A DNA stretch of 64,000 nt, from assembly GCF_013315695.1 (NCBI RefSeq), contig NZ_CP054353.1; one strand, 5' to 3'. Under the pieces are notes generated by a model. That model saw only the letters and a list, made by a program, of their open reading frames with translations, was not told where the DNA came from and did not search any database. Shown in pieces: positions 6,230 to 25,862 of the stretch. Every line of letters starts with the position of its first letter. Within the stretch, counting starts at the first letter, position 1. The position numbers and the translations under genes were made by a program. This DNA comes from Escherichia coli (lineage in GTDB: Bacteria > Pseudomonadota > Gammaproteobacteria > Enterobacterales > Enterobacteriaceae).

Positions 6230-8011
6230 ATGGCAAAAATGAGAGCCGTTGACGCGGCAATGTATGTGCTGGAGAAAGAAGGTATCATCACCGCCTTCGG
6301 CGTTCCGGGAGCTGCAATCAATCCGTTCTACTCAGCGATGCGTAAGCACGGCGGTATTCGTCACATTCTGGCGCGTCATGTGGAAGGTGCTTCGCACATG
6401 GCGGAAGGTTATACCCGCGCAACGGCAGGGAATATCGGCGTATGTCTGGGGACTTCCGGTCCTGCGGGCACGGACATGATCACCGCGCTCTATTCTGCTT
6501 CTGCTGATTCCATTCCTATTCTGTGTATTACCGGCCAGGCTCCGCGCGCCCGTCTGCATAAAGAAGATTTCCAGGCCGTTGATATTGAAGCAATTGCTAA
6601 ACCGGTCAGCAAAATGGCGGTTACAGTTCGTGAAGCGGCGCTGGTGCCTCGTGTGCTGCAACAGGCGTTTCACCTGATGCGTTCTGGTCGCCCGGGTCCG
6701 GTACTGGTGGATTTACCGTTCGACGTTCAGGTTGCGGAAATCGAGTTTGATCCTGACATGTACGAACCGCTGCCGGTCTACAAACCTGCTGCCAGCCGTA
6801 TGCAGATCGAAAAAGCTGTAGAAATGTTAATTCAGGCCGAACGTCCGGTGATTGTTGCCGGGGGCGGGGTAATCAATGCTGACGCTGCTGCACTGTTACA
6901 ACAGTTTGCTGAACTGACCAGCGTTCCGGTGATCCCAACGCTGATGGGCTGGGGCTGTATCCCGGACGATCATGAACTGATGGCCGGGATGGTGGGTCTG
7001 CAAACCGCGCATCGTTACGGTAACGCAACGTTGCTGGCGTCCGACATGGTGTTTGGTATCGGTAACCGTTTTGCTAACCGTCATACCGGTTCGGTAGAGA
7101 AATACACCGAAGGGCGCAAAATCGTTCATATCGATATTGAGCCGACGCAAATTGGCCGCGTGCTGTGTCCGGATCTCGGCATTGTCTCTGATGCTAAAGC
7201 GGCGCTGACGCTGCTGGTTGAAGTGGCGCAGGAGATGCAAAAAGCGGGTCGTCTGCCGTGTCGTAAAGAATGGGTCGCCGACTGCCAGCAGCGCAAACGT
7301 ACTTTGCTGCGCAAAACCCACTTCGACAATGTGCCGGTGAAACCGCAGCGCGTGTATGAAGAGATGAACAAAGCCTTTGGTCGCGATGTTTGTTATGTCA
7401 CCACCATTGGCCTGTCACAAATCGCTGCGGCACAAATGCTGCATGTCTTTAAAGACCGCCACTGGATCAACTGTGGGCAGGCAGGCCCGCTGGGCTGGAC
7501 CATTCCGGCGGCGCTGGGGGTTTGTGCCGCTGATCCAGAGCGCAAAGTGGTGGCGATTTCCGGTGACTTCGACTTCCAGTTCCTGATTGAAGAATTGGCC
7601 GTTGGCGCACAGTTCAACATTCCGTACATCCATGTACTGGTCAATAACGCCTATCTGGGGCTGATTCGCCAGTCGCAGCGCGCGTTTGATATGGATTACT
7701 GCGTACAGCTCGCGTTCGAAAATATTAACTCCAGTGAAGTGAACGGTTACGGCGTCGACCACGTAAAAGTAGCGGAAGGTTTAGGTTGTAAAGCAATTCG
7801 CGTTTTCAAACCGGAAGATATTGCACCAGCCTTTGAACAGGCGAAAGTCTTAATGGCGCAATATCGGGTACCGGTAGTCGTGGAAGTTATTCTCGAGCGT
7901 GTGACCAATATTTCGATGGGCAGTGAACTGGATAACGTCATGGAATTTGAAGATATCGCCGATAACGCAGCGGACGCACCGACTGAAACCTGTTTCATGC
8001 ACTATGAATAA
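6230..8011 (+). CDS. gcl: glyoxylate carboligase (ThDP enzyme)
   Basis: 593 aa from [19 protein letters not shown]; ThDP-binding family features; start chosen at internal ATG after RBS AGGAATAAAA. Confidence 0.9.
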
Positions 8012-8023
8012 GGGAGATAAATA

Positions 8024-8800
8024 ATGTTACGTTTCTCTGCTAATTTATCGATGTTATTTGGTGAATATGATTTTCTCGCCCGTTTTGAGAAAGCTGCGCA
8101 GTGTGGTTTTCGCGGCGTTGAATTTATGTTCCCTTATGACTACGACATTGAAGAATTAAAACAGGTGCTGGCGAGTAATAAACTCGAACATACGCTGCAC
8201 AATTTACCGGCAGGTGACTGGGCGGCGGGCGAGCGGGGTATTGCCTGTATTCCTGGCCGTGAAGAAGAGTTTCGGGATGGCGTAGCAGCAGCGATTCGTT
8301 ATGCTCGTGCGCTGGGTAATAAAAAAATTAACTGTCTGGTCGGTAAAATGCCAGCTGGTTTCAGCAGTGAACAGATTCACGCAACGCTTGTAGAAAACCT
8401 GCGTTATGCCGCGAATATGCTGATGAAAGAAGATATTTTATTACTGATTGAACCTATCAACCATTTTGATATTCCTGGTTTCCATCTCACCGGAACCCGG
8501 CAGGCACTGAAACTGATTGACGATGTTGGTTGCTGCAATTTGAAAATTCAGTATGACATTTATCACATGCAGCGGATGGAAGGTGAATTAACTAATACCA
8601 TGACTCAGTGGGCCGATAAAATTGGTCACCTGCAAATCGCTGATAATCCGCATCGCGGCGAACCGGGAACCGGAGAAATTAATTACGAATATCTCTTTAC
8701 GGTAATTGAAAATTCTGACTACAACGGTTGGGTTGGCTGTGAATATAAACCCCAAACCACCACGGAAGCTGGTTTAGGCTGGATGGATCCGTACCGTTAA
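8024..8800 (+). CDS. hyi: hydroxypyruvate isomerase
   Basis: 258 aa; TIM-barrel xylose-isomerase-like; context. Confidence 0.85.
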   Translation: MLRFSANLSMLFGEYDFLARFEKAAQCGFRGVEFMFPYDYDIEELKQVLASNKLEHTLHNLPAGDWAAGERGIACIPGREEEFRDGVAAAIRYARALGNKKINCLVGKMPAGFSSEQIHATLVENLRYAANMLMKEDILLLIEPINHFDIPGFHLTGTRQALKLIDDVGCCNLKIQYDIYHMQRMEGELTNTMTQWADKIGHLQIADNPHRGEPGTGEINYEYLFTVIENSDYNGWVGCEYKPQTTTEAGLGWMDPYR

Positions 8801-8899
8801 AACGTAACGCTATTCAGACAATGCTTTTTTAGGCCGCTAAGTTGGCAGGGGATCGTGTTGTCTGAATTCAGGAAAAGCGAAATTTAAAAGAGGTTAATT

Positions 8900-9778
8900 A
8901 TGAAACTGGGATTTATTGGCTTAGGCATTATGGGTACACCGATGGCCATTAATCTGGCACGTGCTGGTCATCAACTGCATGTCACAACCATTGGTCCGGT
9001 TGCTGATGAATTACTGTCACTGGGTGCCGTCAGTGTTGAAACGGCGCGCCAGGTAACGGAAGCATCGGACATCATTTTTATTATGGTGCCGGATACGCCA
9101 CAGGTTGAAGACGTTCTGTTTGGTGAAAATGGTTGTACCAAAGCCTCGCTGAAGGGCAAAACCATTGTTGATATGAGCTCCATTTCCCCGATCGAAACTA
9201 AACGTTTCGCTCGTCAGGTGAATGAACTGGGCGGCGATTATCTCGATGCGCCCGTCTCCGGCGGTGAAATCGGCGCGCGTGAAGGGACGTTGTCGATTAT
9301 GGTTGGCGGTGACGAAGCGGTATTTGAACGTGTTAAACCGCTGTTTGAACTGCTCGGTAAAAATATCACCCTCGTGGGCGGTAACGGCGACGGTCAAACC
9401 TGCAAAGTGGCAAATCAGATTATCGTGGCGCTCAATATTGAAGCGGTTTCTGAAGCCCTGCTATTTGCTTCAAAAGCCGGAGCGGATCCGGTACGTGTGC
9501 GCCAGGCGCTGATGGGCGGCTTTGCTTCCTCACGTATTCTGGAAGTTCACGGTGAGCGCATGATTAAACGCACCTTTAATCCAGGTTTTAAAATTGCGCT
9601 GCACCAGAAAGATCTCAACCTGGCACTGCAAAGTGCGAAAGCACTGGCGCTGAATCTGCCAAACACCGCGACCTGCCAGGAATTGTTTAATACCTGTGCG
9701 GCAAACGGTGGTAGCCAGTTGGATCACTCTGCGTTAGTGCAGGCGCTGGAATTAATGGCTAACCATAAACTGGCCTGA
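8900..9778 (+). CDS. glxR: tartronate semialdehyde reductase
   Basis: 292 aa; N-terminal GxGxxG Rossmann motif (GFIGLGIMG). Confidence 0.85.
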   Translation: MKLGFIGLGIMGTPMAINLARAGHQLHVTTIGPVADELLSLGAVSVETARQVTEASDIIFIMVPDTPQVEDVLFGENGCTKASLKGKTIVDMSSISPIETKRFARQVNELGGDYLDAPVSGGEIGAREGTLSIMVGGDEAVFERVKPLFELLGKNITLVGGNGDGQTCKVANQIIVALNIEAVSEALLFASKAGADPVRVRQALMGGFASSRILEVHGERMIKRTFNPGFKIALHQKDLNLALQSAKALALNLPNTATCQELFNTCAANGGSQLDHSALVQALELMANHKLA

Positions 9779-9947
9779 TACCCGCAATAAAAATGGCCGA
9801 TATCAGAAAATGAATCGGCCAGCAATATTAAAAAAAGAAAGCAGCCAAAGATGTTGCTTCAGTATTAAAAATAATATTTTTATTTTATTTGTTCCTCATA
9901 GCTAGATTAAAAAGACGTTATTCGATACGTGAAATTAAGAGGGATTT

Positions 9948-11402
9948 ATGGAACATCAGAGAAAACTATTCCAGCAACGCGGCTATAGCGAAGATCTATT
10001 GCCGAAAACGCAAAGCCAGCGGACCTGGAAAACATTTAACTATTTTACCTTATGGATGGGTTCGGTTCATAACGTTCCCAATTATGTGATGGTCGGCGGC
10101 TTTTTTATTCTCGGCTTGTCTACCTTTAGTATTATGCTGGCAATTATCCTCAGCGCCTTTTTCATTGCCGCGGTAATGGTATTAAACGGTGCTGCGGGCA
10201 GTAAATACGGTGTGCCTTTTGCCATGATCCTGCGTGCTTCTTACGGCGTACGTGGTGCACTGTTTCCCGGATTATTAAGAGGCGGGATTGCTGCCATTAT
10301 GTGGTTTGGCCTGCAATGTTACGCTGGATCGCTGGCCTGCTTGATCCTGATTGGCAAAATCTGGCCGGGATTTTTAACTCTCGGTGGTGATTTTACCCTG
10401 TTAGGGCTTTCTCTACCGGGTTTAATCACTTTCTTACTCTTCTGGCTGGTGAACGTCGGAATCGGTTTCGGTGGTGGCAAAGTTTTAAATAAATTCACCG
10501 CCATTCTTAACCCGTGCATCTATGTTGTCTTCGGCGGTATGGCGATTTGGGCGATTTCGCTGGTCGGGATCGGTCCAATCTTTGACTACATTCCGGGCGG
10601 TATTCAGAAAGCAGAAAACGGTGGCTTCCTGTTCCTGGTGGTGATTAACGCGGTAGTTGCGGTCTGGGCGGCACCGGCGGTGAGCGCATCCGACTTTACG
10701 CAAAACGCCCACTCGTTTCGTGAGCAGGCGCTGGGGCAAACGCTGGGTTTAGTTGTGGCCTATATTCTGTTTGCGGTCGCCGGGGTATGTATTATTGCCG
10801 GAGCCAGTATTCACTACGGCGCGGACACCTGGAACGTGCTGGATATTGTTCAGCGTTGGGACAGCCTGTTTGCCTCGTTCTTTGCGGTACTGGTTATTCT
10901 GATGACGACTATCTCCACTAACGCCACCGGTAATATTATTCCGGCTGGTTATCAGATAGCCGCTATTGCACCGACGAAACTGACCTATAAAAACGGCGTA
11001 CTGATTGCCAGTATTATCAGCTTGCTGATCTGCCCGTGGAAATTAATGGAAAATCAGGACAGCATTTATCTGTTCCTCGATATTATCGGCGGAATGCTGG
11101 GTCCGGTAATTGGTGTCATGATGGCGCATTATTTTGTGGTGATGCGCGGACAAATTAATCTTGATGAACTGTATACCGCAGCAGGGGATTTCAAATATTA
11201 CGATAACGGCTTTAACCTTACCGCGTTCTCAGTAACTTTGGTCGCCGTTATTTTATCTCTCGGTGGTAAATTTATTCCGTTCATGGAGCCTTTATCACGC
11301 GTTTCATGGTTTGTCGGCGTTATTGTCGCCTTTGCGGCCTACGCCTTATTAAAGAAACGTACTGCAGCAGAAAAAACAGGAGAACAAAAAGTCACAGGTT
11401 AA
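9948..11402 (+). CDS. ybbW: NCS1-family allantoin permease
   Basis: 484 aa polytopic membrane protein; context. Confidence 0.8.
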   Translation: MEHQRKLFQQRGYSEDLLPKTQSQRTWKTFNYFTLWMGSVHNVPNYVMVGGFFILGLSTFSIMLAIILSAFFIAAVMVLNGAAGSKYGVPFAMILRASYGVRGALFPGLLRGGIAAIMWFGLQCYAGSLACLILIGKIWPGFLTLGGDFTLLGLSLPGLITFLLFWLVNVGIGFGGGKVLNKFTAILNPCIYVVFGGMAIWAISLVGIGPIFDYIPGGIQKAENGGFLFLVVINAVVAVWAAPAVSASDFTQNAHSFREQALGQTLGLVVAYILFAVAGVCIIAGASIHYGADTWNVLDIVQRWDSLFASFFAVLVILMTTISTNATGNIIPAGYQIAAIAPTKLTYKNGVLIASIISLLICPWKLMENQDSIYLFLDIIGGMLGPVIGVMMAHYFVVMRGQINLDELYTAAGDFKYYDNGFNLTAFSVTLVAVILSLGGKFIPFMEPLSRVSWFVGVIVAFAAYALLKKRTAAEKTGEQKVTG

Positions 11403-11462
11403 TTAATCCCGATATTGAACATTGAGTTAAAAAACCAATTTGTATTTTACAAGGAGTTTGTT

Positions 11463-12824
11463 ATGTCTTTTGATTTAATTATTAAAAACGGCACCGTTAT
11501 TTTAGAAAACGAAGCTCGCGTAGTGGATGTCGCCGTTAAAGGCGGAAAAATTGCTGCTATCGGTCAGGATCTGGGCGATGCAAAAGAAGTTATGGATGCG
11601 TCTGGTCTGGTGGTTTCGCCAGGCATGGTTGATGCGCACACCCATATTTCTGAACCGGGTCGCAGCCACTGGGAAGGTTATGAAACCGGTACTCGCGCAG
11701 CAGCAAAAGGTGGTATCACCACCATGATCGAAATGCCGCTCAACCAGCTGCCTGCAACGGTTGACCGCGCATCGATTGAACTGAAGTTTGATGCCGCTAA
11801 AGGCAAGCTGACTATCGATGCGGCGCAACTCGGTGGCCTGGTGTCTTACAACATCGACCGTCTGCATGAGCTGGATGAAGTGGGCGTTGTCGGCTTCAAA
11901 TGCTTCGTTGCGACCTGTGGCGATCGCGGTATCGACAACGACTTCCGTGACGTCAATGACTGGCAGTTCTTCAAAGGTGCGCAGAAGCTGGGCGAACTGG
12001 GACAGCCGGTGTTGGTGCACTGCGAAAACGCGCTGATCTGTGACGAACTTGGCGAAGAAGCGAAACGTGAAGGTCGCGTAACCGCACATGACTATGTGGC
12101 TTCGCGTCCGGTATTTACCGAAGTGGAAGCGATTCGCCGCGTGCTGTACCTGGCGAAAGTTGCTGGTTGCCGTCTGCACGTTTGTCATATCAGCAGCCCG
12201 GAAGGTGTTGAGGAAGTGACTCGTGCACGTCAGGAAGGTCAGGACGTTACCTGTGAATCCTGCCCGCATTACTTTGTGCTGGATACCGACCAGTTTGAAG
12301 AAATCGGTACACTGGCGAAGTGTTCACCGCCGATCCGCGATCTGGAAAACCAGAAAGGCATGTGGGAAAAACTGTTTAACGGTGAAATCGACTGCCTGGT
12401 TTCCGACCACTCTCCATGCCCGCCGGAAATGAAAGCCGGTAACATTATGAAAGCATGGGGCGGTATCGCCGGTCTGCAAAGCTGCATGGACGTGATGTTC
12501 GATGAAGCGGTACAGAAACGCGGTATGTCTCTGCCGATGTTCGGCAAATTAATGGCGACTAACGCAGCAGATATTTTCGGTCTGCAGCAAAAAGGCCGTA
12601 TCGCCCCAGGAAAAGATGCCGACTTCGTCTTCATTCAGCCGAATAGCAGCTATGTTCTTACCAATGACGATCTGGAATATCGCCACAAAGTCAGCCCGTA
12701 TGTTGGCCGTACCATTGGCGCGCGTGTCACGAAAACTATCTTACGTGGTGATGTGATTTACGACATTGAACAGGGCTTCCCTGTTGCGCCGAAAGGTCAA
12801 TTTATCCTTAAACATCAGCAGTAA
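11463..12824 (+). CDS. allB: allantoinase (cyclic amidohydrolase)
   Basis: 453 aa from [10 protein letters not shown]; metal-binding DAHTH motif. Confidence 0.85.
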
Positions 12825-12873
12825 TCTGGCCCTGCAATGCCCGTCCTTGTGGCGGGCATTCTCCGGTTAAGGT

Positions 12874-14181
12874 GTGTTTATGTTCAATTTTGCAGTCAGC
12901 CGCGAAAGCCTGTTATCAGGATTTCAGTGGTTTTTCTTTATTTTTTGCAACACTGTTGTGGTTCCTCCTACGCTACTTTCTGCTTTTCAGTTGCCGCAAA
13001 GTAGCCTGCTTACGCTCACGCAATATGCTTTTCTTGCTACCGCACTGGCCTGCTTCGCTCAGGCGTTCTGCGGTCATCGCCGCGCTATTATGGAAGGGCC
13101 GGGTGGCCTGTGGTGGGGAACCATCCTGACTATCACCCTTGGCGAAGCATCGCGCGGGACACCGATCAACGATATCGCTACCAGTCTGGCGGTGGGGATT
13201 GCGCTCTCCGGCGTGCTGACGATGTTGATTGGTTTTAGCGGATTAGGCCATCGTCTGGCACGGTTATTTACGCCGTCGGTGATGGTCTTGTTTATGTTGA
13301 TGCTGGGTGCGCAACTGACCACTATCTTTTTCAAAGGTATGCTCGGGCTGCCGTTTGGCATAGCCGACCCGAATTTTAAAATTCAGTTACCGCCGTTCGC
13401 GCTCTCGGTGGCGGTGATGTGCCTGGTACTGGCGATGATTATCTTCCTGCCGCAACGTTTTGCCCGTTATGGCCTGCTGGTCGGTACGATAACCGGCTGG
13501 TTGTTGTGGTACTTTTGCTTTCCTTCTTCGCATTCGCTCTCCGGTGAGTTGCACTGGCAGTGGTTCCCGCTCGGCAGTGGCGGTGCTTTGTCGCCGGGGA
13601 TTATTCTGACGGCGGTGATTACAGGTCTGGTAAATATCAGCAATACCTACGGTGCGATTCGTGGCACGGATGTTTTTTATCCGCAACAGGGCGCGGGGAA
13701 TACGCGTTATCGTCGCAGCTTTGTGGCGACCGGATTTATGACGCTGATAACCGTGCCGCTGGCGGTAATTCCATTTTCACCGTTTGTTTCATCCATTGGT
13801 TTATTAACCCAGACTGGCGATTACACGCGACGATCGTTTATTTATGGCAGCGTTATTTGCCTGCTGGTGGCACTGGTTCCGGCACTCACACGACTGTTTT
13901 GCAGTATCCCTTTACCGGTGAGTAGCGCGGTCATGCTGGTTTCTTATCTGCCTTTACTCTTTTCCGCGCTGGTGTTTAGCCAGCAAATCACGTTTACCGC
14001 TCGCAATATTTATCGACTCGCATTGCCGTTATTTGTCGGCATATTTTTAATGGCATTACCGCCTGTGTATCTGCAAGACCTTCCATTAACGCTTCGTCCT
14101 CTGCTCAGTAACGGCTTACTGGTCGGAATTTTACTGGCTGTTCTTATGGATAATCTTATTCCGTGGGAACGCATCGAATAA
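12874..14181 (+). CDS. ybbY: putative purine/uracil-family permease
   Basis: 435 aa membrane protein; context. Confidence 0.7.
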   Translation: MFMFNFAVSRESLLSGFQWFFFIFCNTVVVPPTLLSAFQLPQSSLLTLTQYAFLATALACFAQAFCGHRRAIMEGPGGLWWGTILTITLGEASRGTPINDIATSLAVGIALSGVLTMLIGFSGLGHRLARLFTPSVMVLFMLMLGAQLTTIFFKGMLGLPFGIADPNFKIQLPPFALSVAVMCLVLAMIIFLPQRFARYGLLVGTITGWLLWYFCFPSSHSLSGELHWQWFPLGSGGALSPGIILTAVITGLVNISNTYGAIRGTDVFYPQQGAGNTRYRRSFVATGFMTLITVPLAVIPFSPFVSSIGLLTQTGDYTRRSFIYGSVICLLVALVPALTRLFCSIPLPVSSAVMLVSYLPLLFSALVFSQQITFTARNIYRLALPLFVGIFLMALPPVYLQDLPLTLRPLLSNGLLVGILLAVLMDNLIPWERIE

Positions 14182-14202
14182 TTTGTTGAAAAAGGATTGA
14201 TA

Positions 14203-15345
14203 ATGAAAATTGTCATTGCGCCAGACTCGTTTAAAGAGAGCTTAAGTGCAGAAAAATGTTGTCAGGCAATTAAAGCCGGGTTTTCGACCCTCTTTCCCGA
14301 TGCGCACTATATCTGTTTGCCGATAGCGGATGGCGGCGAAGGAACGGTGGATGCGATGGTCGCCGCGACGGGCGGCAACATCGTGACGCTTGAAGTCTGC
14401 GGGCCGATGGGCGAAACAGTGAATGCTTTTTATGGCCTTACCGGCGACGGGAAAACGGCGGTGATTGAGATGGCTGCGGCAAGCGGCCTGATGCTGGTCG
14501 CGCCTGAAAAGCGTAATCCGTTGCTGGCCTCCAGTTTTGGTACGGGGGAGTTAATTCGCCATGCGCTGGATAACGGCATTCGCCATATTATTCTCGGCAT
14601 TGGCGGCAGTGCGACGGTCGACGGCGGTATGGGCATGGCGCAGGCGCTCGGTGTGCGTTTCCTTGATGCCGACGGTCAGGTGCTGGCGGCTAACGGCGGC
14701 AATTTAGCGCGCGTGGCAAGCATTGAGATGAATGAATGCGATCCGCGTCTGGCGAACTGTCATATTGAAGTCGCATGTGACGTTGATAACCCGCTGGTAG
14801 GGGCACGCGGCGCGGCGGCGGTGTTTGGCCCGCAAAAAGGGGCAACGCCGGAGATGGTCGAAGAACTGGAACAGGGGCTGCAAAATTACGCCCGTGTTTT
14901 ACAACAGCTAACTGAAATCAACGTCTGCCAGATGGCGGGCGGTGGCGCGGCGGGCGGTATGGGCATTGCGGCGGAGGTATTCCTCAATGCGGATATTAAA
15001 CCGGGTATTGAGATTGTGTTGAATGCGGTCAATCTTGCGCAGGCGGTGCAGGGTGCAGCACTGGTGATCACCGGGGAAGGGCGCATCGATTCGCAAACGG
15101 CAGGTGGTAAAGCGCCGCTGGGCGTGGCGTCGGTGGCGAAGCAGTTTAATGTCCCGGTGATTGGGATTGCTGGCGTATTGGGTGATGGCGTGGAAGTGGT
15201 GCACCAGTACGGCATTGACGCGGTGTTCAGCATTTTGCCACGTCTGGCACCTTTAGCCGAAGTGCTCGCCAGCGGTGAAACCAATCTCTTCAACAGCGCA
15301 CGAAATATTGCCTGCGCCGGTGATGCTGCCAACTTACTGATTTAG
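14203..15345 (+). CDS. glxK: glycerate kinase; last codons and stop lie inside the IS1 left inverted repeat
   Basis: About 380 aa; ORF continues across the IS1 boundary at 15319 (…[10 protein letters not shown]). Confidence 0.75.
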
Positions 15346-15373
15346 TGTATGATGGTGTTTTTGAGGTGCTCCA

Positions 15374-15649
15374 GTGGCTTCTGTTTCTATCAGCTGTCCC
15401 TCCTGTTCAGCTACTGACGGGGTGGTGCGTAACGGCAAAAGCACCGCCGGACATCAGCGCTATCTCTGCTCTCACTGCCGTAAAACATGGCAACTGCAGT
15501 TCACTTACACCGCTTCTCAACCCGGTACGCACCAGAAAATCATTGATATGGCCATGAATGGCGTTGGATGCCGGGCAACAGCCCGCATTATGGGCGTTGG
15601 CCTCAACACGATTTTACGTCACTTAAAAAACTCAGGCCGCAGTCGGTAA
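15374..15649 (+). CDS. insA: IS1 InsA
   Basis: 91 aa zinc-finger/HTH protein, identical in both copies. Confidence 0.9.
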
Positions 15650-16071
15650 CCTCGCGCATACAGCCGGGCAGTGACGTCATCGTCTGCGCGGAAATGGACG
15701 AACAGTGGGGCTATGTCGGGGCTAAATCGCGCCAGCGCTGGCTGTTTTACGCGTATGACAGGCTCCGGAAGACGGTTGTTGCGCACGTATTCGGTGAACG
15801 CACTATGGCGACGCTGGGGCGTCTTATGAGCCTGCTGTCACCCTTTGACGTGGTGATATGGATGACGGATGGCTGGCCGCTGTATGAATCCCGCCTGAAG
15901 GGAAAGCTGCACGTAATCAGCAAGCGATATACGCAGCGAATTGAGCGGCATAACCTGAATCTGAGGCAGCACCTGGCACGGCTGGGACGGAAGTCGCTGT
16001 CGTTCTCAAAATCGGTGGAGCTGCATGACAAAGTCATCGGGCATTATCTGAACATAAAACACTATCAATAA
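15568..16071 (+). CDS. insB: IS1 InsB (transposase C-part, made as InsAB' by -1 frameshift)
   Basis: 167 aa ORF overlapping insA in the -1 frame. Confidence 0.85.
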
Positions 16072-16086
16072 GTTGGAGTCATTACC

Positions 16087-17618
16087 TAGATACCACAGGT
16101 TTCTGGCATGACGATTTTAATAACGCCACGCCGAACGATATTTGCGTGGCAATTCGTAGCGAAGCGGCGGATGCGGGGATCGCGCAGGCGGTTATGCAGC
16201 AGCTTGAAGAGGCGCTAAAACAACTGGCGCAGGGTTCAGGCAGCAGCCAGGCGTTGACGCAGGTGCGTCGCTGGGACAGTGCCTGTCAGAAATTACCCGA
16301 TGCCAGTCTGGCGCTGATTTCAGTGGCTGGTGAGTATGCGGCGGAGCTGGCGAACCAGGCGCTGGATCGCAACCTCAACGTGATGATGTTCTCCGATAAC
16401 GTCACGCTGGAAGATGAAATCCAACTTAAAACCCGCGCGCGGGAAAAAGGCTTGCTGGTGATGGGGCCGGACTGCGGTACATCGATGATTGCCGCCACGC
16501 CGCTGGCTTTTGCTAACGTGATGCCGGAAGGCAACATTGGCGTCATTGGCGCTTCCGGTACCGGGATTCAGGAGCTGTGCTCACAGATTGCGCTGGCAGG
16601 GGAGGGAATTACTCATGCGATTGGCCTTGGCGGGCGCGACCTCAGCCGTGAAGTGGGCGGCATCAGTGCGCTGACGGCGCTGGAAATGCTCAGTGCAGAC
16701 GAGAAAAGCGAAGTGCTGGCATTTGTTTCAAAACCACCTGCCGAAGCTGTGCGTCTGAAAATTGTTAATGCCATGAAAGCAACTGGCAAACCGACGGTGG
16801 CGCTGTTTTTAGGTTATACCCCGGCGGTGGCCCGCGACGAGAATGTCTGGTTTGCCTCCTCGCTGGATGAGGCCGCACGCCTGGCTTGTCTGCTTTCACG
16901 CGTCACTGCGCGACGTAACGCGATAGCGCCTGTCAGCAGCGGATTTATTTGCGGTTTGTATACCGGCGGTACGCTGGCTGCTGAAGCTGCGGGATTACTT
17001 GCCGGACACCTTGGCGTGGAAGCCGACGATACCCATCAACATGGCATGATGCTCGACGCCGACGGACATCAGATCCTCGACCTGGGCGATGATTTTTACA
17101 CCGTCGGGCGTCCCCATCCGATGATCGACCCGACCTTACGCAACCTGTTAATTGCCGATCTCGGCGCTAAACCGCAAGTGCGAGTGTTGCTGCTTGATGT
17201 GGTGATTGGCTTCGGTGCGACCGCCGATCCTGCCGCCTCGCTGGTGAGCGCCTGGCAAAAAGCCTGTGCCGCGCGTTCAGACAATCAACCACTGTATGCC
17301 ATTGCCACGGTGACAGGCACTGAACGTGACCCGCAATGCCGCTCGCAGCAAATCGCCACGCTGGAAGATGCGGGGATCGCGGTAGTGAGTTCGCTACCGG
17401 AAGCCACCTTGCTGGCTGCGGCGTTAATTCATCCGCTCTCGCCTGCCACACAGCAACACACACCGTCATTACTGGAAAACGTCGCCGTGATTAACATCGG
17501 ATTACGCAGCTTTGCGCTGGAGCTACAAAGCGCCAGCAAACCGGTTGTGCATTACCAATGGTCGCCAGTCGCCGGTGGCAATAAAAAACTGGCTCGTTTA
17601 TTAGAACGTTTGCAATAA
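16087..17618 (+). pseudogene. fdrA: fdrA-like acyl-CoA synthetase-family gene, 5' end removed by IS1
   Basis: Frame is open right up to the IS1 end with no start codon and no promoter; the listed ORF starts at an internal GTG (16146). Confidence 0.7.
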
Positions 17619-17627
17619 GGGGTTCCC

Positions 17628-18887
17628 ATGTTTACATCAGTGGCGCAAGCCAATGCTGCGGTTATCGAACAAATTCGTCGCGCTCGTCCACACTGGCTGG
17701 ATGTGCAACCGGCTTCTTCACTTATCAGCGAACTAAACAAGGGCAAAACACTGCTTCACGCCGGGCCGCCAATGCGCTGGCAGGAGATGACCGGACCCAT
17801 GAAAGGGGCGTGCGTGGGCGCATGTCTGTTCGAAGGCTGGGCGAAAGATGAAGCGCAGGCGCTGGCAATACTGGAGCAGGGGGAAGTGAACTTCATTCCT
17901 TGTCACCATGTGAATGCCGTCGGGCCAATGGGCGGCATTACTTCTGCCAGTATGCCGATGCTGGTGGTTGAGAACGTGACCGACGGCAACCGGGCGTACT
18001 GCAACCTCAACGAAGGTATCGGCAAAGTGATGCGTTTTGGCGCTTACGGCGAAGATGTCCTGACTCGCCATCGCTGGATGCGCGATGTGTTAATGCCAGT
18101 ATTAAGCGCGGCGCTGGGGCGCATGGAGCGCGGTATCGATCTCACCGCGATGATGGCACAGGGCATTACCATGGGCGATGAGTTCCATCAGCGCAACATT
18201 GCATCCTCAGCACTGTTGATGCGCGCGCTGGCCCCACAAATTGCTCGCCTCAATCACGATAAACAGCACATCGCGGAAGTGATGGATTTCCTCAGCGTGA
18301 CCGATCAGTTCTTCCTCAACCTCGCGATGGCTTACTGCAAGGCGGCGATGGATGCAGGCGCGATGATCCGCGCAGGCAGCATCGTCACGGCTATGACCCG
18401 CAACGGCAATATGTTCGGGATTCGGGTAAGCGGGCTGGGTGAACGCTGGTTTACTGCGCCTGTAAACACTCCGCAAGGTCTGTTTTTCACCGGCTTCTCG
18501 CAGGAGCAGGCGAACCCGGATATGGGCGATAGCGCGATTACCGAAACCTTTGGTATCGGTGGTGCGGCAATGATCGCAGCCCCTGGCGTAACACGCTTTG
18601 TCGGTGCGGGTGGCATGGAAGCGGCCAGAGCGGTATCTGAAGAGATGGCGGAAATCTTCCTTGAACGCAATATGCAGTTGCAGATCCCCGGCTGGGATTT
18701 CCAGGGCGCGTGCCTGGGGCTGGACATTCGTCGCGTGGTAGAAACCGGCATTACGCCACTCATCAATACCGGTATCGCCCATAAAGAGGCGGGGATCGGG
18801 CAGATTGGCGCAGGCACCGTGCGGGCACCGCTGGCGTGCTTTGAACAGGCGCTGGAAGCACTGGCTGCAAGCATGGGTATTGCTTGA
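17628..18887 (+). CDS. ylbE: DUF1116-family protein
   Basis: 419 aa; context after fdrA. Confidence 0.7.
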
Positions 18888-18897
18888 GGAACACGCA

Positions 18898-19713
18898 ATG
18901 ACAATCATCCATCCTCTGCTTGCCAGCCGTAGCGCACCGAATTATCGCCAGTCCTGGCGGTTAGCGGGCGTGTGGCGGCGGGCGATTAACCTGATGACGG
19001 AAAGCGGCGAACTGTTAACGCTGCATCGTCAGGGGAGTGGTTTCGGCCCCGGAGGATGGGTGCTTCGCCGCGCGCAATTCGATGCGTTATGCGGTGGATT
19101 ATGCGGCAATGAACGACCACAGGTTGTGGCTCAAGGCATTCGCCTCGGACGTTTCACGGTTAAACAGCCACAGCGTTATTGTTTGCTGCGTATTACGCCG
19201 CCTGCGCATCCTCAACCGCTTGCAGCTGCATGGATGCAACGCGCGGAGGAAACCGGGCTTTTCGGGCCACTGGCGATGGCGGCAAGCGATCCGCTGCCTG
19301 CTGAGTTACGCCAGTTTCGTCACTGTTTTCAGGCCGCGCTCAATGGCGTTAAGACCGACTGGCGGCACTGGCTGGGTAAAGGCCCAGGATTAACGCCAAG
19401 TCATGATGACACGCTGAGCGGAATGCTGCTGGCGGCCTGGTATTATGGCGCTTTAGATGCGCGCTCCGGTCGCCCGTTTTTTGCCTGTTCCGACAATCTT
19501 CAACTCGTTACCACAGCGGTGAGCGTCAGTTATTTACGTTATGCCGCGCAAGGATATTTCGCCTCGCCACTCCTGCACTTTGTTCATGCTCTGAGTTGCC
19601 CGAAACGTACCGCTGTTGCGATTGATTCGCTGCTGGTGCTGGGGCATACGTCAGGGGCAGATACGCTGCTGGGGTTCTGGCTTGGCCAACAATTATTACA
19701 AGGAAAACCATGA
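18898..19713 (+). CDS. ylbF: putative oxamate carbamoyltransferase subunit-like protein
   Basis: About 271 aa from [10 protein letters not shown]; context. Confidence 0.65.
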
Positions 19714-20603
19714 AAACACTGGTTGTGGCTCTTGGGGGCAACGCCTTACTCCAGCGCGGCGAAGCGCTGACGGCAGAAAATCAATATCGCAATATTGCCA
19801 GTGCTGTACCCGCGTTGACGCGCCTGGCCCGTTCTTATCGGCTGGCGATTGTTCACGGCAACGGGCCACAGGTGGGGCTGTTGGCGTTACAGAATCTGGC
19901 GTGGAAAGAGGTCGAACCGTATCCGCTGGATGTACTGGTGGCGGAAAGTCAGGGGATGATTGGCTATATGCTGGCGCAGAGCTTGAGCGCACAGCCGCAG
20001 ATGCCGCCTGTGACGACGGTGCTGACGCGCATTGAAGTTTCGCCTGATGATCCGGCGTTTTTGCAGCCAGAGAAATTTATCGGTCCGGTTTATCAGCCAG
20101 AAGAACAAGAGGCACTGGAAGCGGCTTACGGCTGGCAGATGAAACGTGATGGTAAATACTTGCGCCGGGTGGTGGCATCTCCGCAACCGCGTAAAATTCT
20201 CGACAGCGAAGCCATTGAGTTGTTGCTCAAAGAGGGGCATGTGGTGATTTGCAGTGGCGGCGGCGGTGTGCCTGTGACGAAAGACGGGGCAGGGAGTGAA
20301 GCAGTGATTGATAAAGATCTCGCCGCTGCGTTGCTCGCCGAGCAGATTAATGCCGATGGACTGGTGATCCTCACCGATGCTGATGCGGTATATGAAAACT
20401 GGGGAACGCCGCAGCAACGTGCCATTCGCCGTGCCACACCGGATGAGTTAGCGCCATTTGCCAAAGCCGATGGTTCGATGGGGCCGAAGGTAACGGCGGT
20501 GAGTGGCTATGTCAGAAGCCGTGGTAAACCCGCGTGGATTGGGGCGTTATCGCGGATTGAAGAGACGCTGGCGGGCGAAGCGGGGACTTGTATTTCGCTG
20601 TAG
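19710..20603 (+). CDS. ybcF: carbamate kinase-like protein
   Basis: 297 aa; amino-acid kinase fold motifs (ALGGNAL…). Confidence 0.8.
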
Positions 20604-20609
20604 TGATGG

Positions 20610-20825
20610 GCACCAGGCAATTGGCACATCTAGCCTGATGCGATGCTGGCGCGTCTTATCAGGTCTACAGGCGGTGTCGGAACGGTAGGCCGGATAAGGC
20701 GTTCACGCCGCATCCGGCAATCGGCACACCATGCCTGATGCGATGCTGGCGCATCTTATCAGGCCTACAGTCGGTGTTGGAACGGTAGGCCTGATAAGGC
20801 GTTCACGCCGCATGCGGCAAGAAAA
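20610..20825. repeat. two tandem REP/BIME units of about 100 bp
   Basis: Near-identical units, each with GCCTGATGCGATGCTGGCGC and GGATAAGGCGTTCACGCCGCATCCGGCA. Confidence 0.75.
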
Positions 20826-20835
20826 TGAGCATCAA

Positions 20836-21903
20836 TTAACTGAACTTGCTCTGCGCCCACATCACGCCGCTGGCATACTCTGGCGGCAGCAGCGGGATTA
20901 AGGCTTCCAGCGTCGCGGTCAGACGCGATGTGTCGCTGTCGGTCAAATTCAGATGCCCCACTTTACGCCCCGGACGGACTTCTTTGTCGTACCAGTGCAG
21001 ATGCACCAGCGGCAGTTTCAGCCAGTCATAATTCACATCGCTACCAATCAGGTTGATCATCACCGACGGACTATTCACTACTGGTTGCGGTAACGGCAGA
21101 TCGGTAATCGCCCGCAGATGCAGCTCAAACTGGCTGATGCTGGCACCGTTTTGTGTCCAGTGACCGCTGTTATGCACACGCGGAGCCAGTTCGTTGATCA
21201 GCAGACCTTGCGGGGTGACAAAACACTCCATCGCCATCACGCCCACATAGCCCAGCTCCTGCATAATCGCCGACAGCATCTCTTCGGCCTGCGCCTGCTG
21301 CTGCGCGTTGGCCTGCGGGAAAGCGACGCTGGTGCGCAAAATACCGTCCTGATGCAGGTTATGCGTCAGCGGATAAAACACGGTGCTACCATCAAAGCCG
21401 CGCGCGCCAACCAGCGACACTTCACCAGAGAAGTTTATGCCCTGCTCGACAATACATTCGCCGTAGCATTCAGCCGGTAACTGTTCGGTTTCATCGGCGC
21501 GTAAACGCCATTGACCGCGTCCGTCATAGCCACCAGTGCGACGCTTAACAATCGCCAGCTCACCTAAACGATCAAACACCGCCGGCCACTCGCTGCGATC
21601 GGCAAGTAACTGCCACGGTGCGGTCGGCAGGTGAAGCTTGTCGAAAAGCTGCTTCTGAGTCAGACGGTCAGCAATAATCGGGAACACATCGCGGTTCACA
21701 AAGGCCGGATGGCGCGCCAGCTCGCGGGTTAATGCGGTTTCCGGCCAGCGTTCGATCTCAGCGGTAATCACACTTTGTTGAAAAGGCACCGCCGCCGGTT
21801 CAGCGTCCAGCCCGACTGGCCAGACAGCAATGCCTAACGGTTCGCCTGCCTGACGCAGCATACGGCCTAACTGCCCGTTACCGAGGACGCAAACCTGTTT
21901 CAT
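20836..21903 (-). CDS. purK: N5-carboxyaminoimidazole ribonucleotide synthase
   Basis: 355 aa ATP-grasp protein; overlaps purE. Confidence 0.9.
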
Positions 21904-22409
21904 GCCGCACCTCGCGGGTCCGGGTTTTCCAGCACTTCGTCAGTCTGTGCTTTGCGCCAGTCATTCAGACGCTGGTGTAGCTCTTTATCATGAGTTGCAA
22001 GAATTTGTGCTGCCAGTAACGCCGCGTTTGCCGCGCCAGCTTTACCAATCGCCAGCGTACCCACCGGAATGCCGCGTGGCATTTGTACGATAGAGTAGAG
22101 GCTATCGACACCGCTCAGTGCGGCGCTCTGTACTGGCACGCCCAGCACTGGCACCAGCGTTTTGGCGGCAATCATGCCAGGCAGGTGCGCTGCGCCGCCT
22201 GCGCCCGCAATAATTACCTGATAACCGTTCTCTTCGGCGCTTTCGGCGAAGCTGAACAGTTTATCGGGGGTGCGGTGAGCAGAAACCACTTCAACGTGGT
22301 GCGGGACATTCAGGATTTCGAAGATTTCGGCGGCGAACTGCATGGTAGCCCAGTCGCTTTTGGACCCCATCACGATGGCGACACGCGCCGGATTATTGCG
22401 GGAAGACAT
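21900..22409 (-). CDS. purE: N5-CAIR mutase
   Basis: 169 aa from [19 protein letters not shown]. Confidence 0.9.
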
Positions 22410-22526
22410 GCGTCTTAAAACTCCTGTGGTGCACAACTCTCGGCTTTAGAGGGCACAGAGAATAGCACGGAAAGAGAGCAAGGAAAACGGTTGCGTGGCT
22501 GTGAAATCAGCAAAGTTGCGGGTTTT

Positions 22527-23249
22527 TTAAAAAGGAAAATGAATCAGCTCAACGTCATCCGCCGTGACTTTTACCATTGAACCTTCCGTATGCCAGGCAC
22601 CCAGCACGACGCGAAAAGCAGGTTGCTGATTGGCGATAAGTTCATGTACCGCCGGGCGATGGGTATGTCCGTGGATCAGCCATTGCACCTGATGTTTTTC
22701 CATCGCACTGACCACCGCGTTTTGGTTAACGTCCATGATCGCCAGCGATTTACTGCTGTTGGCTTCTTTGCTGTTCGCTCGCATTCGCGCGGCAATGCGT
22801 TTGCGCACAAACAACGGCAGGGCGAGGAATAGCGTTTGCAGCCAGGGTTTGTGGACTTTGGCGCGAAAAGCCTGATAACCGGCGTCATCGGTGCACAGCG
22901 TGTCGCCATGCATAATCAATACCCGGCGACCATACAGTTCGAGCACCTTTTCTTCCGGCAATAACGTCATGCCGCTTTCACGGGCAAAGCGTTTGCCGAG
23001 CAGAAAATCACGGTTGCCATGAATGAAATAACAGGGAACGCCGGAATCGGACACCGCTTTGATCGCTGCCGCCATCTGGCGATGGAGTGGGTTGGGATCG
23101 TCGTCGCCAATCCACGCTTCAAACAGATCGCCAAGAATATACAGCGCGTCGGCATTGCGGGCTTCCCCCGCTAAAAAACGCAGAAAACCGGCGGTGATCG
23201 CCGGTTCTTCCACGCAGAGATGAAGATCTGCAATAAAGAGTGTCGCCAC
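22527..23249 (-). CDS. lpxH: UDP-2,3-diacylglucosamine hydrolase
   Basis: 240 aa calcineurin-like phosphoesterase ([11 protein letters not shown]…, GNRD motif). Confidence 0.85.
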
Positions 23250-23251
23250 GA

Positions 23252-23746
23252 TTACTCGCTAACGGTCACGCTTTCAATGATAACGTCTTCTTTTGGCACG
23301 TCCTGGTGCATACCGCTACGACCGGTTGCAACACCTTTGATTTTGTCTACCACGTCCATGCCTTCAACCACTTCAGCAAACACGCAGTAACCCCAACCTT
23401 GCAGGCTTTCGCCAGAGAAGTTCAGGAAGTCGTTATCAACTACGTTGATGAAGAACTGTGCAGTTGCAGAGTGCGGTGCCTGAGTACGGGCCATTGCCAG
23501 CGTACCACGGGTATTTTTCAGACCGTTATTGGCTTCGTTTTTGATCGGGTCTTTGGTGGTTTTTTGCTTCATGCCCGGTTCAAAACCGCCGCCCTGAATC
23601 ATAAAGCCGTTGATTACACGGTGGAAAATGGTGTTGTTGTAAAAACCTTCGCGGCAGTAGTCCAGGAAGTTTTTAACTGTTTCAGGTGCTTTATCGTCAA
23701 AAGTTTTGATGACAATATCGCCGTGATTGGTGTGGAAAGTAACCAT
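23252..23746 (-). CDS. ppiB: peptidyl-prolyl cis-trans isomerase B
   Basis: 164 aa cyclophilin ([16 protein letters not shown]…). Confidence 0.9.
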
Positions 23747-23919
23747 TTTTGCATCCTGTTCCGTTTGATTGGTGCTTCAACCCGGTTCGGGTCATATATA
23801 GGGTGGTGTTATAGCATAACCGCACGATCGGATCATCACGCAATGTATGCTGATTCGCGCGGGAAATATGGGTATTATACGCAACTCAATTACCCACACA
23901 TGTCTAAACGGAATCTTCG

Positions 23920-25305
23920 ATGCTAAAAATCTTCAATACTCTGACACGCCAAAAAGAGGAATTTAAGCCTATTCACGCCGGGGAAGTCGGCATGTACGTG
24001 TGTGGAATCACCGTTTACGATCTCTGTCATATCGGTCACGGGCGTACCTTTGTTGCCTTTGACGTGGTCGCGCGCTATCTGCGTTTCCTCGGCTATAAGC
24101 TGAAGTATGTGCGCAACATTACCGATATCGACGACAAAATCATCAAACGCGCCAATGAAAATGGCGAAAGCTTTGTAGCGCTGGTGGATCGCATGATCGC
24201 CGAAATGCACAAAGATTTTGATGCTTTGAACATTCTGCGCCCGGATATGGAGCCGCGCGCGACGCACCATATCGCAGAAATTATTGAACTCACTGAACAA
24301 CTGATCGCCAAAGGTCACGCGTATGTGGCGGACAACGGCGACGTGATGTTTGACGTCCCGACCGATCCAACATATGGCGTGCTGTCGCGTCAGGATCTCG
24401 ACCAGCTGCAGGCAGGCGCGCGCGTTGACGTGGTCGACGACAAACGCAACCCGATGGACTTCGTTCTGTGGAAGATGTCGAAAGAGGGCGAACCGAGCTG
24501 GCCGTCTCCGTGGGGCGCGGGCCGTCCTGGCTGGCACATTGAATGTTCGGCAATGAACTGCAAGCAGCTGGGTAACCACTTTGATATCCACGGCGGCGGT
24601 TCTGACCTGATGTTCCCGCACCACGAAAACGAAATCGCGCAGTCCACCTGTGCCCATGATGGTCAGTATGTGAACTACTGGATGCACTCCGGAATGGTGA
24701 TGGTTGACCGCGAGAAGATGTCCAAATCGCTGGGTAACTTCTTTACCGTGCGCGATGTGCTGAAATACTACGATGCCGAAACCGTGCGTTATTTCCTGAT
24801 GTCGGGGCACTATCGCAGCCAGTTGAACTACAGCGAAGAGAACCTGAAGCAGGCGCGTGCGGCGCTGGAGCGTCTTTACACTGCGCTGCGCGGCACAGAT
24901 AAAACCGTTGCGCCTGCGGGTGGCGAAGCGTTTGAAGCGCGCTTTATTGAAGCGATGGACGACGATTTCAACACCCCGGAAGCCTATTCCGTGCTGTTTG
25001 ATATGGCCCGTGAAGTGAACCGTCTGAAAGCAGAAGATATGGCAGCGGCGAATGCAATGGCGTCTCATCTGCGTAAACTTTCCGCCGTATTGGGCCTGCT
25101 GGAGCAAGAACCGGAAGCGTTCCTGCAAAGCGGCGCGCAGGCAGACGACAGCGAAGTGGCTGAGATTGAAGCGTTAATTCAACAGCGTCTGGATGCCCGT
25201 AAAGCGAAAGACTGGGCGGCGGCAGATGCGGCACGTGACCGTCTTAACGAGATGGGGATCGTGCTGGAAGATGGCCCGCAAGGGACCACCTGGCGTCGTA
25301 AGTAA
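23920..25305 (+). CDS. cysS: cysteinyl-tRNA synthetase
   Basis: 461 aa class I aaRS with HIGH (HIGH at CHIGHGRT) and KMSKS motifs. Confidence 0.92.
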
Positions 25306-25316
25306 TTGCGCTATTG

Positions 25317-25340
25317 CCGGATGCGAGTTTTCGCATCCGG
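25317..25340. terminator. GC-rich hairpin between convergent cysS and ybcI
   Basis: CCGGATGCGA-GTTTT-CGCATCCGG perfect stem. Confidence 0.45.
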
Positions 25341-25862
25341 TTATCGTCTGCGCCACCACAACATTCCCATCAGTAGCATCCCCGGCAACCACACCCAGAT
25401 CAATTCAGAAATAATCACCTTGTGCCCGTACGGCGTGGTGTAACGAGACAATGCAAACGGCGCGACTTTGATCACCTGCCAGGGAGCGAAAAAGCGTTCA
25501 TCTGACCACGGCCACAGCCAGCCAACCCCTTTACCGCCAGTGGTTACCGAATCCAGCAAGCTGTGCGATAGCAACGAGACGGTTAAAAACAGCCAGCAGC
25601 GAATCAGCCCAGCCCTGAACCATCGACGTCCAATCAGCACACATAACAGCGGGACAACAAACGCAAACACCAGCGAATGGGTAAACCCGCGATGACCAAA
25701 AACATTGCCGTAAGCAACGCCAAATTTAAACGACAATACGTCGGCATCAGGCAGCATCGCCAGGACGATTCCGGCAAATAACAGGCGCGGAGGGATGACT
25801 TTTGAACCCAACCCTAAACCAATGCAAAGGGGAACGGCGGCGTGCGTAATAACGGTTGGCAT
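25341..25862 (-). CDS. ybcI: inner-membrane metal-dependent hydrolase-like protein
   Basis: 173 aa hydrophobic protein; context. Confidence 0.7.
   Translation of the reverse strand: MPTVITHAAVPLCIGLGLGSKVIPPRLLFAGIVLAMLPDADVLSFKFGVAYGNVFGHRGFTHSLVFAFVVPLLCVLIGRRWFRAGLIRCWLFLTVSLLSHSLLDSVTTGGKGVGWLWPWSDERFFAPWQVIKVAPFALSRYTTPYGHKVIISELIWVWLPGMLLMGMLWWRRR

Follow-up and report, generated by a model that had tools for sequence, protein, structure and literature searches.

Background

How did glxK and fdrA (allF), between which Escherichia coli K-12 carries the allantoin genes allE, allC and allD, come to be joined by a single copy of IS1, and what does this arrangement mean for the strain that carries it? 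The question is raised by a 64-kb stretch of E. coli DNA (from NZ_CP054353.1), here called the window, whose first-pass annotation described an IS1 junction and the loss of allantoin genes at this place. Both observations were confirmed.

The ALL cluster, extending from allS to allK (b0504-b0521), comprises three single genes and three operons, gcl, allD and allF (PMC12535856). The divergent allD/allF control region contains AllS and ArcA sites; those of the allF promoter, and the promoter itself, are located between -203 and -83 relative to the allF ATG (PMC12535856). The locus was compared with K-12, with closely related genomes and with a set of 5,426 complete RefSeq E. coli genomes.

Results

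Alignment with a K-12 reference segment paired positions 126-13004 of the latter with window positions 2439-15318, and positions 16817-26001 with window positions 16087-25309, leaving 3,812 bp of K-12 DNA (reference segment 13005-16816) absent from the window. The absent DNA comprises the tail of glxK, allE, allC, allD, the allD/allF control region and nt 1-136 of fdrA. It was found nowhere else in the 64-kb window, where the K-12 proteins AllE, AllC and AllD had no tblastn match either, so that the earlier claim that these three genes are missing with respect to the usual order holds. The concern that the natural gene order might simply lack them at this site is countered by the presence of the segment between glxK and fdrA in 5,282 of the 5,426 complete genomes; one of these is strain MSB1_4I, in which this IS1 is already in place.

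All the other proteins of the cluster were recovered at full length in tblastn searches with K-12 proteins, twelve genes in total. Nine of these occupy positions 3609-14181 (allS on the minus strand; allA, allR, gcl, hyi, glxR, allW, allB and ybbY on the plus strand), with 98-100% identity, full coverage and an order collinear with both K-12 and MSB1_4I. On the far side of IS1, ylbE (allG, 17628-18887), ylbF (allH, 18898-19713) and ybcF (allK, 19710-20603) are intact on the plus strand, with full-length matches of 98.7-98.9% to K-12. The window does not hold a complete K-12-type ALL cluster: it lacks allE, allC, allD and the control region, and has a truncated fdrA and a changed GlxK C-terminus. 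Moreover, the deleted DNA includes the promoter of allF along with its AllS and ArcA sites, and ylbE-ylbF-ybcF is severed from this promoter.

The element at the junction (15319-16086, plus strand) was recognised from its termini, open reading frames and frameshift motif as an intact 768-bp IS1 of the IS1A type. Its IRL (15319-15341) and IRR (16064-16086) match the canonical IS1 ends exactly; these ends, the imperfect 23-bp terminal inverted repeats GGTGATGCTGCCAACTTACTGAT and GGTAATGACTCCAACTTATTGAT, have 0 matches expected in shuffled sequence. Both insA (15374-15649) and the insB' frame (ending at 16071) are intact, as is the A6C -1 frameshift motif TTAAAAAAC at 15625-15631. The Pfam domains Zn_ribbon_InsA, HTH_Tnp_IS1 and DDE_Tnp_IS1 are recorded for an element identical to this one, and RefSeq labels it an IS1A-family transposase with programmed frameshift. 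Being intact, the element is potentially active. Neither the IS1 at the same site in MSB1_4I nor a second copy in the window at 37042-37809 differs from it (100% identity). The gcl operon is co-oriented with it and reads straight into it. The flanks of the element, GCCTGCGCC on the left and TAGATACCA on the right, do not form the 8- or 9-bp target-site duplication of a simple IS1 insertion. In MSB1_4I and in GCA_000460675.1, GCCTGCGCC stands on both sides; the missing duplication is thus due to the later deletion and is no argument against the identity of the element.

On the left side, glxK (14203-15345, plus strand) was delimited by translation against K-12 and MSB1_4I. It starts with the ATG at 14203 and keeps 372 native codons up to 15318, after which eight codons from the IRL, encoding GDAANLLI, and a TAG at 15343-15345 bring it to an end, in agreement with the earlier reading that the left repeat of IS1 supplies the end of the gene. 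The eight residues take the place of the nine C-terminal residues of K-12 GlxK, IKIGQGIKN. Since the Pfam domain Gly_kinase spans residues 3-370, it is retained. The same chimeric reading frame is annotated as glxK by RefSeq in MSB1_4I. The window protein additionally has a private A258E substitution (14975), and an exact-protein look-up returned no record of this variant. The left copy of the 9-bp duplication, GCCTGCGCC, lies at 15310-15318, the right copy being gone from the window. A left-junction query, combining 30 nt of IS1 with 80 nt of flanking DNA, was matched only by MSB1_4I among the 5,426 complete genomes.

On the right side, alignments to K-12 and MSB1_4I place the novel joint between the IRR end and nt 137 of K-12 fdrA at 16086-16087. 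What follows (16087-17618, plus strand) is a 5'-truncated fdrA' (allF') that corresponds to K-12 nt 137-1668 and residues 46-555, and has no start codon, ribosome-binding site or promoter of its own. Its frame is open backwards into IS1 as far as a TGA at 16026-16028, and after this stop no ATG, GTG or TTG occurs in frame until the GTG at 16146 (K-12 codon 66); no Shine-Dalgarno-like sequence was seen upstream of this GTG or of the ATG at 16194. A promoter scan of the plus strand found no sigma-70-like sites from the IS1 insA promoter (15326-15353) to 16500. Frame reading and promoter scan thus agree with the earlier description of an fdrA frame open up to the IS1 end that lacks both start codon and promoter. 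A hybrid outward promoter at the joint, with the IRR TTGGAG separated by a 16-18 nt spacer from a CAGGTT-like sequence, was also considered and rejected, the plus-strand scan being negative. The FdrA domains CoA_binding (193-287) and Ligase_CoA (336-491) both lie downstream of the break, and a GTG-started FdrA' has no exact protein on record. The truncated fdrA' is presumably a pseudogene.

The first-pass annotation had spoken of a fusion of glxK to fdrA. IS1 does join the end of glxK to nt 137 of fdrA; this is not a gene fusion, because the glxK, insB' and fdrA' frames differ and stops intervene, and in-frame GlxK-InsA, InsB'-FdrA' and GlxK-FdrA' products were rejected on the same grounds.

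The closest available state before the deletion is found in MSB1_4I (NZ_LR898874.1), which is collinear with the whole 64-kb window at 99.84-100% identity. At the glxK position occupied in the window it has an identical IS1, flanked by a perfect 9-bp duplication, and its GlxK ends in the chimeric residues seen in the window; unlike the window, it has intact allE-allC-allD-fdrA. Positions 1-9087 of the MSB1_4I segment correspond to window 7000-16086, and positions 12812-17087 to window 16087-20362 at 100%, so that the window lacks exactly 3,724 bp of MSB1_4I (9088-12811), counted from the first base after the IRR. The two share a clone background, with 2 differences in 9 kb. Each lineage has a substitution of its own, allB G83D in MSB1_4I and glxK A258E in the window, and the two are therefore sisters. 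A third genome, GCA_000460675.1, shows the same simple insertion of IS1 in glxK, with the same left junction and GlxK C-terminus and with the duplication kept. It differs from the window in having kept the allE-allC-allD-fdrA region, in which allC is interrupted by a 1,221-bp IS30-type insertion.

A query spanning both junctions reached at least 80% coverage in none of the 5,426 complete genomes, and the idea that the window represents a well-known laboratory or B-type strain with this deletion was rejected for that reason. The right junction, queried with the same lengths of IS1 and flank, likewise occurred in 0 of 5,426; its closest match, in STEC2018-553, is offset by 9 bp and is a separate simple IS1 insertion. 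The novel joint had 0 matches in an exact scan of JGI metagenome contigs. In the literature, nothing relevant was found on a deletion of the allC, allD, glxK region by IS1, nor on MSB1_4I.

Comparable deletions have arisen elsewhere. In Ec1120 (NZ_CP126598.1; also OY754416 and OY754389), the gene-level outcome is that of the window: where allE-allC-allD and the 5' end of fdrA would be expected, there is a single IS1 oriented as in the window, no duplication is present, and ylbE-ylbF-ybcF is intact. There, however, the left end lies 29 nt past an intact glxK stop (K-12 reference segment 13063) and the right end at fdrA nt 80 instead of 137, in a different strain background, which marks an independent event. 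W21 and Ec-RL2-1X (glxR'-IS1-fdrA') and MRE162 (allD/fdrA intergenic-IS1-fdrA') also share the IS1 orientation of the window and the lack of a duplication, with right endpoints at fdrA nt 50, 94 and 107. Their extent is different, since the deletions in W21 and Ec-RL2-1X cover about 9.3 kb and also remove allW-allB-ybbY-glxK, whereas that in MRE162 covers only 393 bp. These independent, duplication-less deletions end at fdrA nt 50, 80, 94 and 107, several of them 43-87 nt from the window junction and within the AT-rich 5' portion of fdrA that also holds this junction; no stretch of the glxK-to-ybcF region is richer in AT than the one in which the endpoints fall. A break within the first 272 nt of fdrA, with the rest of the gene kept, was observed in about 60 of the 5,426 genomes. 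As a side observation, comparison by eye of the fdrA target with the IS1 ends revealed only a CAATAA/TACC resemblance.

Discussion

The locus is probably the product of two successive IS1 events within one E. coli clone, the second being an IS1-promoted adjacent deletion. For the first event, the genome comparison demonstrates, at the level of sequence, an insertion of IS1 into the last glxK codons in an ancestor common to MSB1_4I. The insertion duplicated the 9 bp GCCTGCGCC and replaced the nine last GlxK residues with eight encoded by IS1. In the second event, the same IS1 would have driven a deletion from its IRR to a new target at nt 137 in the AT-rich 5' part of fdrA/allF. This would have kept the element and the left junction untouched and removed the intervening 3,724 bp, with the right copy of the duplication, the glxK tail, allE, allC, allD, the allD/allF control region and fdrA nt 1-136. 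The outcome of this step can be read directly from the alignments, and we infer that its route was most likely intramolecular transposition ("adjacent deletion").

Several features agree with this route. The left junction and the IS1 are unchanged (100% to MSB1_4I), the deletion starts at the terminus of the element, and the element is kept with no target duplication. The IS1 is potentially active, the co-oriented gcl operon reads into it, and read-through from upstream increases IS1 transposition (PMC12428005). Intramolecular target-primed transposition, typical for IS1/Tn9, entails the loss of the direct repeat (PMC9330008), and in IS-associated deletions of the LTEE the insertion came first and the adjacent deletion later (PMC11708052). 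The classical gal/Tn9 deletions share with the window an intact IS1, one unchanged junction and a start at the IS1 terminus, as well as the lack of a target duplication and a new endpoint in AT-rich DNA (PMC9330008). Compared with them, the window would offer a new locus and new breakpoints, with no difference in kind.

A loss of 3,724 bp counted from the right end of IS1 is the signature of an adjacent deletion, or of recombination between two IS1 copies giving the same product. The latter, a rather unlikely course of events in our assessment, would have begun with the arrival of another, directly oriented IS1 at nt 137 of fdrA (target TAGATACCA), after which RecA-dependent recombination between the two identical copies excised allE-allC-allD together with one IS1. 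The product would be identical, with the left junction of the first copy, the right junction of the second and no matching duplication; duplications are known to go missing when IS copies recombine (PMC11708052), and the 5' part of fdrA does take simple insertions, as the IS1 of STEC2018-553, whose duplication AAGCGTTAT directly adjoins the window junction, illustrates. Yet this course needs two events instead of one, neither a two-IS1 intermediate nor even the right junction occurs in any of the 5,426 complete genomes, and the single-IS1, duplication-less deletions of four other strains in the same patch fit direct transposition more simply. These arguments are not decisive: at the sequence level the end product would look the same by either route, and no chimeric IS1 could betray recombination, because all the IS1 copies seen are identical.

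An assembly artefact, in which real IS1 copies at both glxK and fdrA were collapsed and the 3.7-kb segment between them was dropped, is highly improbable. IS1 is indeed a multi-copy repeat of 768 bp that confuses or breaks short-read assemblies, and many draft contigs with this glxK allele, whose chimeric GlxK is found in 361 collection blocks, end inside it (L008 and 18 similar places), but here the junctions match the IS1 termini to the base, the flanking DNA otherwise agrees with the sister genome at 100%, and equivalent deletions occur in independent finished genomes. Furthermore, a collapse would leave an orphan 3.7-kb contig and still need an unobserved IS1 at fdrA nt 137. Relocation of a still working allE-allC-allD, as an IS1-flanked unit or by inversion or translocation, is hardly credible either: the visible DNA is 64 kb of the source genome, and LR-71-1 does carry an IS1 inversion, instead of a deletion, of allD-allC-allE', but the window holds no trace of the three genes, matches the sister genome collinearly over 15 kb on one side and 48 kb on the other with no second breakpoint, and a moved copy would still lack part of the control region and the 5' end of fdrA.

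Under the adjacent-deletion reading, allantoin would still be imported by AllW and opened to allantoate by AllB. The pathway would stop there, because AllC, AllE and AllD are gone, and under anaerobic conditions allantoin is therefore predicted to be lost to the strain as a nitrogen source; AllC and AllE are the enzymes that release the first two NH3 (PMC12535856). AllS would be left without either of the two promoters that it reportedly activates, and transcription of ylbE-ylbF-ybcF would depend entirely on read-through, either from the gcl operon or from the insA promoter of IS1. The glyoxylate branch, gcl-hyi-glxR-glxK, probably remains in working order. Oxamate formation requires each of allF, allG and allH, and in K-12 plasmid-borne allGH without allF gave back 16% of oxamate production (PMC11326118); for this reason the loss of AllF alone may not fully abolish the activity.

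It is improbable, in our view, that the loss is more than a neutral accident and belongs to a recurrent inactivation, driven by IS1 and favoured by selection, of the anaerobic branch for allantoin (oxamate) in gut E. coli. Three hints point in that direction, namely the second independent lesion in the same clone (allC::IS30), at least five independent IS1 events at fdrA nt 50-137 in other lineages, and the roughly 60 genomes broken within the first 272 nt of fdrA. Under this reading, growth on glyoxylate or allantoin would raise transposase expression, because the gcl operon reads into the IS1 embedded in glxK, and adjacent deletion would be inducible. The AT-rich 5' part of fdrA would then be a preferred landing zone, and after the deletion read-through from gcl/IS1 would control ylbE-ylbF-ybcF (carbamate kinase).

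Conclusions

The gene loss is real, strain-specific and routine, the last because IS1 deletions into the 5' part of fdrA arose independently in other E. coli. Adjacent deletion by IS1 is a well-known mechanism, and the locus brings neither a new mechanism nor a new biological question; its practical value lies mainly in annotation and strain typing, for which glxK is best described as an IS1-terminated variant and fdrA as a pseudogene. The window and MSB1_4I form a clean natural before/after example of an IS1 adjacent deletion. In the strain itself, AllS, AllA, AllB, AllW and the products of ylbE-ylbF-ybcF would be stranded without a complete pathway and, together with the parallel deletions in unrelated strains, the case identifies the AT-rich junction of allD and fdrA as a place where the E. 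coli ALL cluster is fragile.

An IS1-bounded deletion between glxK and fdrA

Alignment to the K-12 locus (L003) at ~97% identity covers window 2439-15318 (L003 126-13004) and window 16087-25309 (L003 16817-26001), and the 3,812 bp in between (L003 13005-16816) have no counterpart in the window. K-12 AllE, AllC and AllD gave no tblastn match within the 64-kb window, in which AllS, AllA, AllR, Gcl, Hyi, GlxR, AllW, AllB, YbbY, YlbE, YlbF and YbcF were all recovered at full length. The loss of allE, allC and allD between glxK and fdrA, proposed in the first-pass annotation, was thus confirmed. The missing segment, counted as present when 80% or more was found in one place, occurs in 5,282 of the 5,426 complete E. 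coli genomes, and its absence is therefore derived, not the natural alternative gene order which that annotation had considered.

The gap is occupied by a complete IS1 of 768 bp (15319-16086, plus strand), whose 23-bp ends are both exact canonical IS1 inverted repeats (0 expected by chance) and whose insA, insB' frame and A6C frameshift site are intact. As first annotated, glxK (ATG at 14203, 372 native codons through 15318) is ended by the IS1 left repeat: translation against K-12 shows that the repeat replaces the K-12 tail IKIGQGIKN with GDAANLLI, the last codons of the frame, and supplies its TAG stop at 15343-15345. The chimeric GlxK is probably still functional, since its Pfam glycerate-kinase domain extends from residue 3 to residue 370 and the exchanged residues belong, in alignment to the solved homologues 3cwc and 1to6, to the poorly conserved extreme C-terminus. 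A promoter-like site with 9 of 12 matches lies across this junction on the minus strand (15304-15332), with a -35 TTGGCA within the IS1 left repeat, a 17-nt spacer and a -10 AATATT in glxK. This candidate would drive antisense transcription into the 3' end of glxK and is similar to fusion promoters that have been described at IS1 ends, but the scan count was not above shuffle expectation.

On the other side, the first base past IS1 (16087) is nt 137 of K-12 fdrA (allF); in the window, the gene lacks residues 1-45 together with its start codon and promoter. The first-pass reading of a frame open to the IS1 end without start codon or promoter also held: the frame is open backwards into IS1 up to a TGA at 16026-16028, its first start-type codon is GTG 16146 (K-12 codon 66), which has no ribosome-binding sequence ahead of it. 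The consensus scan detected the insA promoter in the left repeat, but nothing promoter-like directed out of IS1 towards the truncated fdrA'. A fusion protein was ruled out, as glxK, insB' and fdrA' are in different frames.

Sister genomes and the order of events

The best match to the left junction was E. coli MSB1_4I (NZ_LR898874.1, locus L001), which is collinear with the whole window at 99.84-100% identity, including a second IS1 (37042-37809) and the prophage beyond. MSB1_4I carries the same IS1, base for base, at exactly the same point of glxK, with GCCTGCGCC on either side, the standard 9-bp IS1 target duplication, and downstream of it allE, allC, allD and fdrA are intact. The same simple glxK insertion is found in a third relative, GCA_000460675.1. 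In comparison with MSB1_4I, the window lacks exactly L001 9088-12811 (3,724 bp), which run from the base immediately beyond the IS1 right end into fdrA; the flanks are otherwise 100% identical. The deletion is longer against K-12 because the K-12 glxK-allE spacer has an extra REP-like repeat element of ~98 bp (L003 13087-13187), absent from the window clone including MSB1_4I; copies related to it occur in the window at 2219-2320 and 20610-20720.

Only two differences separate window and MSB1_4I in 9 kb, and with one private substitution per lineage the two are sisters. At 14975 the window has a derived glxK A258E (GAG, against GCG in K-12 and MSB1_4I), a variable but uncharged position in homologues, and at 11710 MSB1_4I has a derived allB G83D where the window retains Gly. 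GCA_000460675.1 bears a 1,221-bp insertion in allC (L006 7702-8922, 2-bp overlap at the ends) encoding a transposase of IS30 type, with HTH_38 and rve domains. Allantoin catabolism was inactivated here a second time within the clone, by an independent event. The second IS1, 100% identical to the first and in the same orientation, sits without target duplication (flanks ACGGAACGC and TTCTAATTG) in the remnant of a lambdoid prophage at tRNA-Arg, with a truncated DUF2303 gene on one side and an ompC-like porin gene on the other; being shared with MSB1_4I, it marks an older IS1-associated rearrangement.

As IS1 is retained, one junction is unchanged, the loss starts at the IS terminus and there is no duplication, the sequence features match a textbook IS-promoted adjacent deletion: IS1 inserted at glxK first, and intramolecular transposition then most likely removed the DNA from its right end into fdrA. 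Such duplication-less, IS-retaining deletions are described as typical for IS1/Tn9 (PMC9330008), and the order, insertion before deletion, likewise agrees with what evolving E. coli populations have shown (PMC11708052). Insertion of another IS1 at fdrA nt 137 followed by recombination between the two copies would yield an identical product, the sequence being the same either way, but this route is considered the less likely, as the two-IS1 intermediate, or even the right-hand junction alone, occurs in none of the 5,426 complete genomes. An exact scan of JGI metagenome contigs likewise gave no hit to the novel IS1-fdrA joint. Genomic position may have contributed: IS1 is co-oriented with the gcl operon, at its very end and with no terminator before it, and read-through from upstream host genes raises IS1 transposition (PMC12428005).

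Recurrent IS1 junctions at the fdrA 5' end

Independent equivalents were present in other finished genomes. IS1 joins glxK to fdrA nt 80 in Ec1120 and two OY75 records, glxR' to nt 50 in W21 and to nt 94 in Ec-RL2-1X, and the allD/fdrA intergenic region to nt 107 in MRE162, all without target duplication; STEC2018-553 has a simple insertion at nt 128-136 with a 9-bp duplication. The IS1 right end faces fdrA in all of them, an ascertainment effect, as the queries detect this orientation only. At least six distinct junctions (nt 50, 80, 94, 107, 128 and 137) thus fall within the first 137 nt of fdrA in unrelated E. coli (loci L002, L010, L011, L012 and L013, and the window); outside the window, four of the five are deletions lacking a target duplication, and the nt 137 joint is a fifth such deletion. 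STEC2018-553 (L002) also has a second, inverted IS1 47 nt upstream of fdrA, beside a large deletion reaching ybbP, and in LR-71-1 (L014) two IS1 copies flank an inverted allD-allC-allE' segment.

The allD/fdrA intergenic region and the first ~200 nt of fdrA form the most AT-rich stretch from glxK to ybcF (26-48% GC, against 55.6% for whole fdrA), consistent with the known preference of IS1 for AT-rich DNA. In the same direction, fewer genomes retain 80% or more of fdrA nt 1-136 (5,342/5,426) and nt 137-272 (5,361/5,426) than of nt 273-408 (5,402/5,426), so that ~60 of the 5,426 break within the first 272 nt yet retain the remainder. The patch may be a zone in which IS1 lands preferentially, on counts that are uncorrected for clonal relatedness.

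Predicted consequences for allantoin catabolism

AllW and AllB are predicted to still import allantoin and open it to allantoate. With AllC (allantoate amidohydrolase), AllE and AllD gone, neither the glycerate nor the oxamate branch should receive substrate, and allantoin should no longer serve as a nitrogen source for anaerobic growth. The intact ylbE-ylbF-ybcF (allG-allH-allK) could be transcribed only through gcl-operon read-through or from the weak IS1 promoter and, IS1 being classically polar, their expression is expected to be low. Both promoters that AllS reportedly activates went with the deleted DNA, which holds the divergent allD promoter and the allF control region (-203 to -83 relative to the ATG), bound by AllS and ArcA (PMC12535856). 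Oxamate formation needs each of allF, allG and allH, plasmid allGH alone giving 16% of wild type (PMC11326118). The strain-specific, IS1-mediated deletion, predicted to disable allantoin catabolism, is genuine but routine, a new allele produced by a very familiar type of event.
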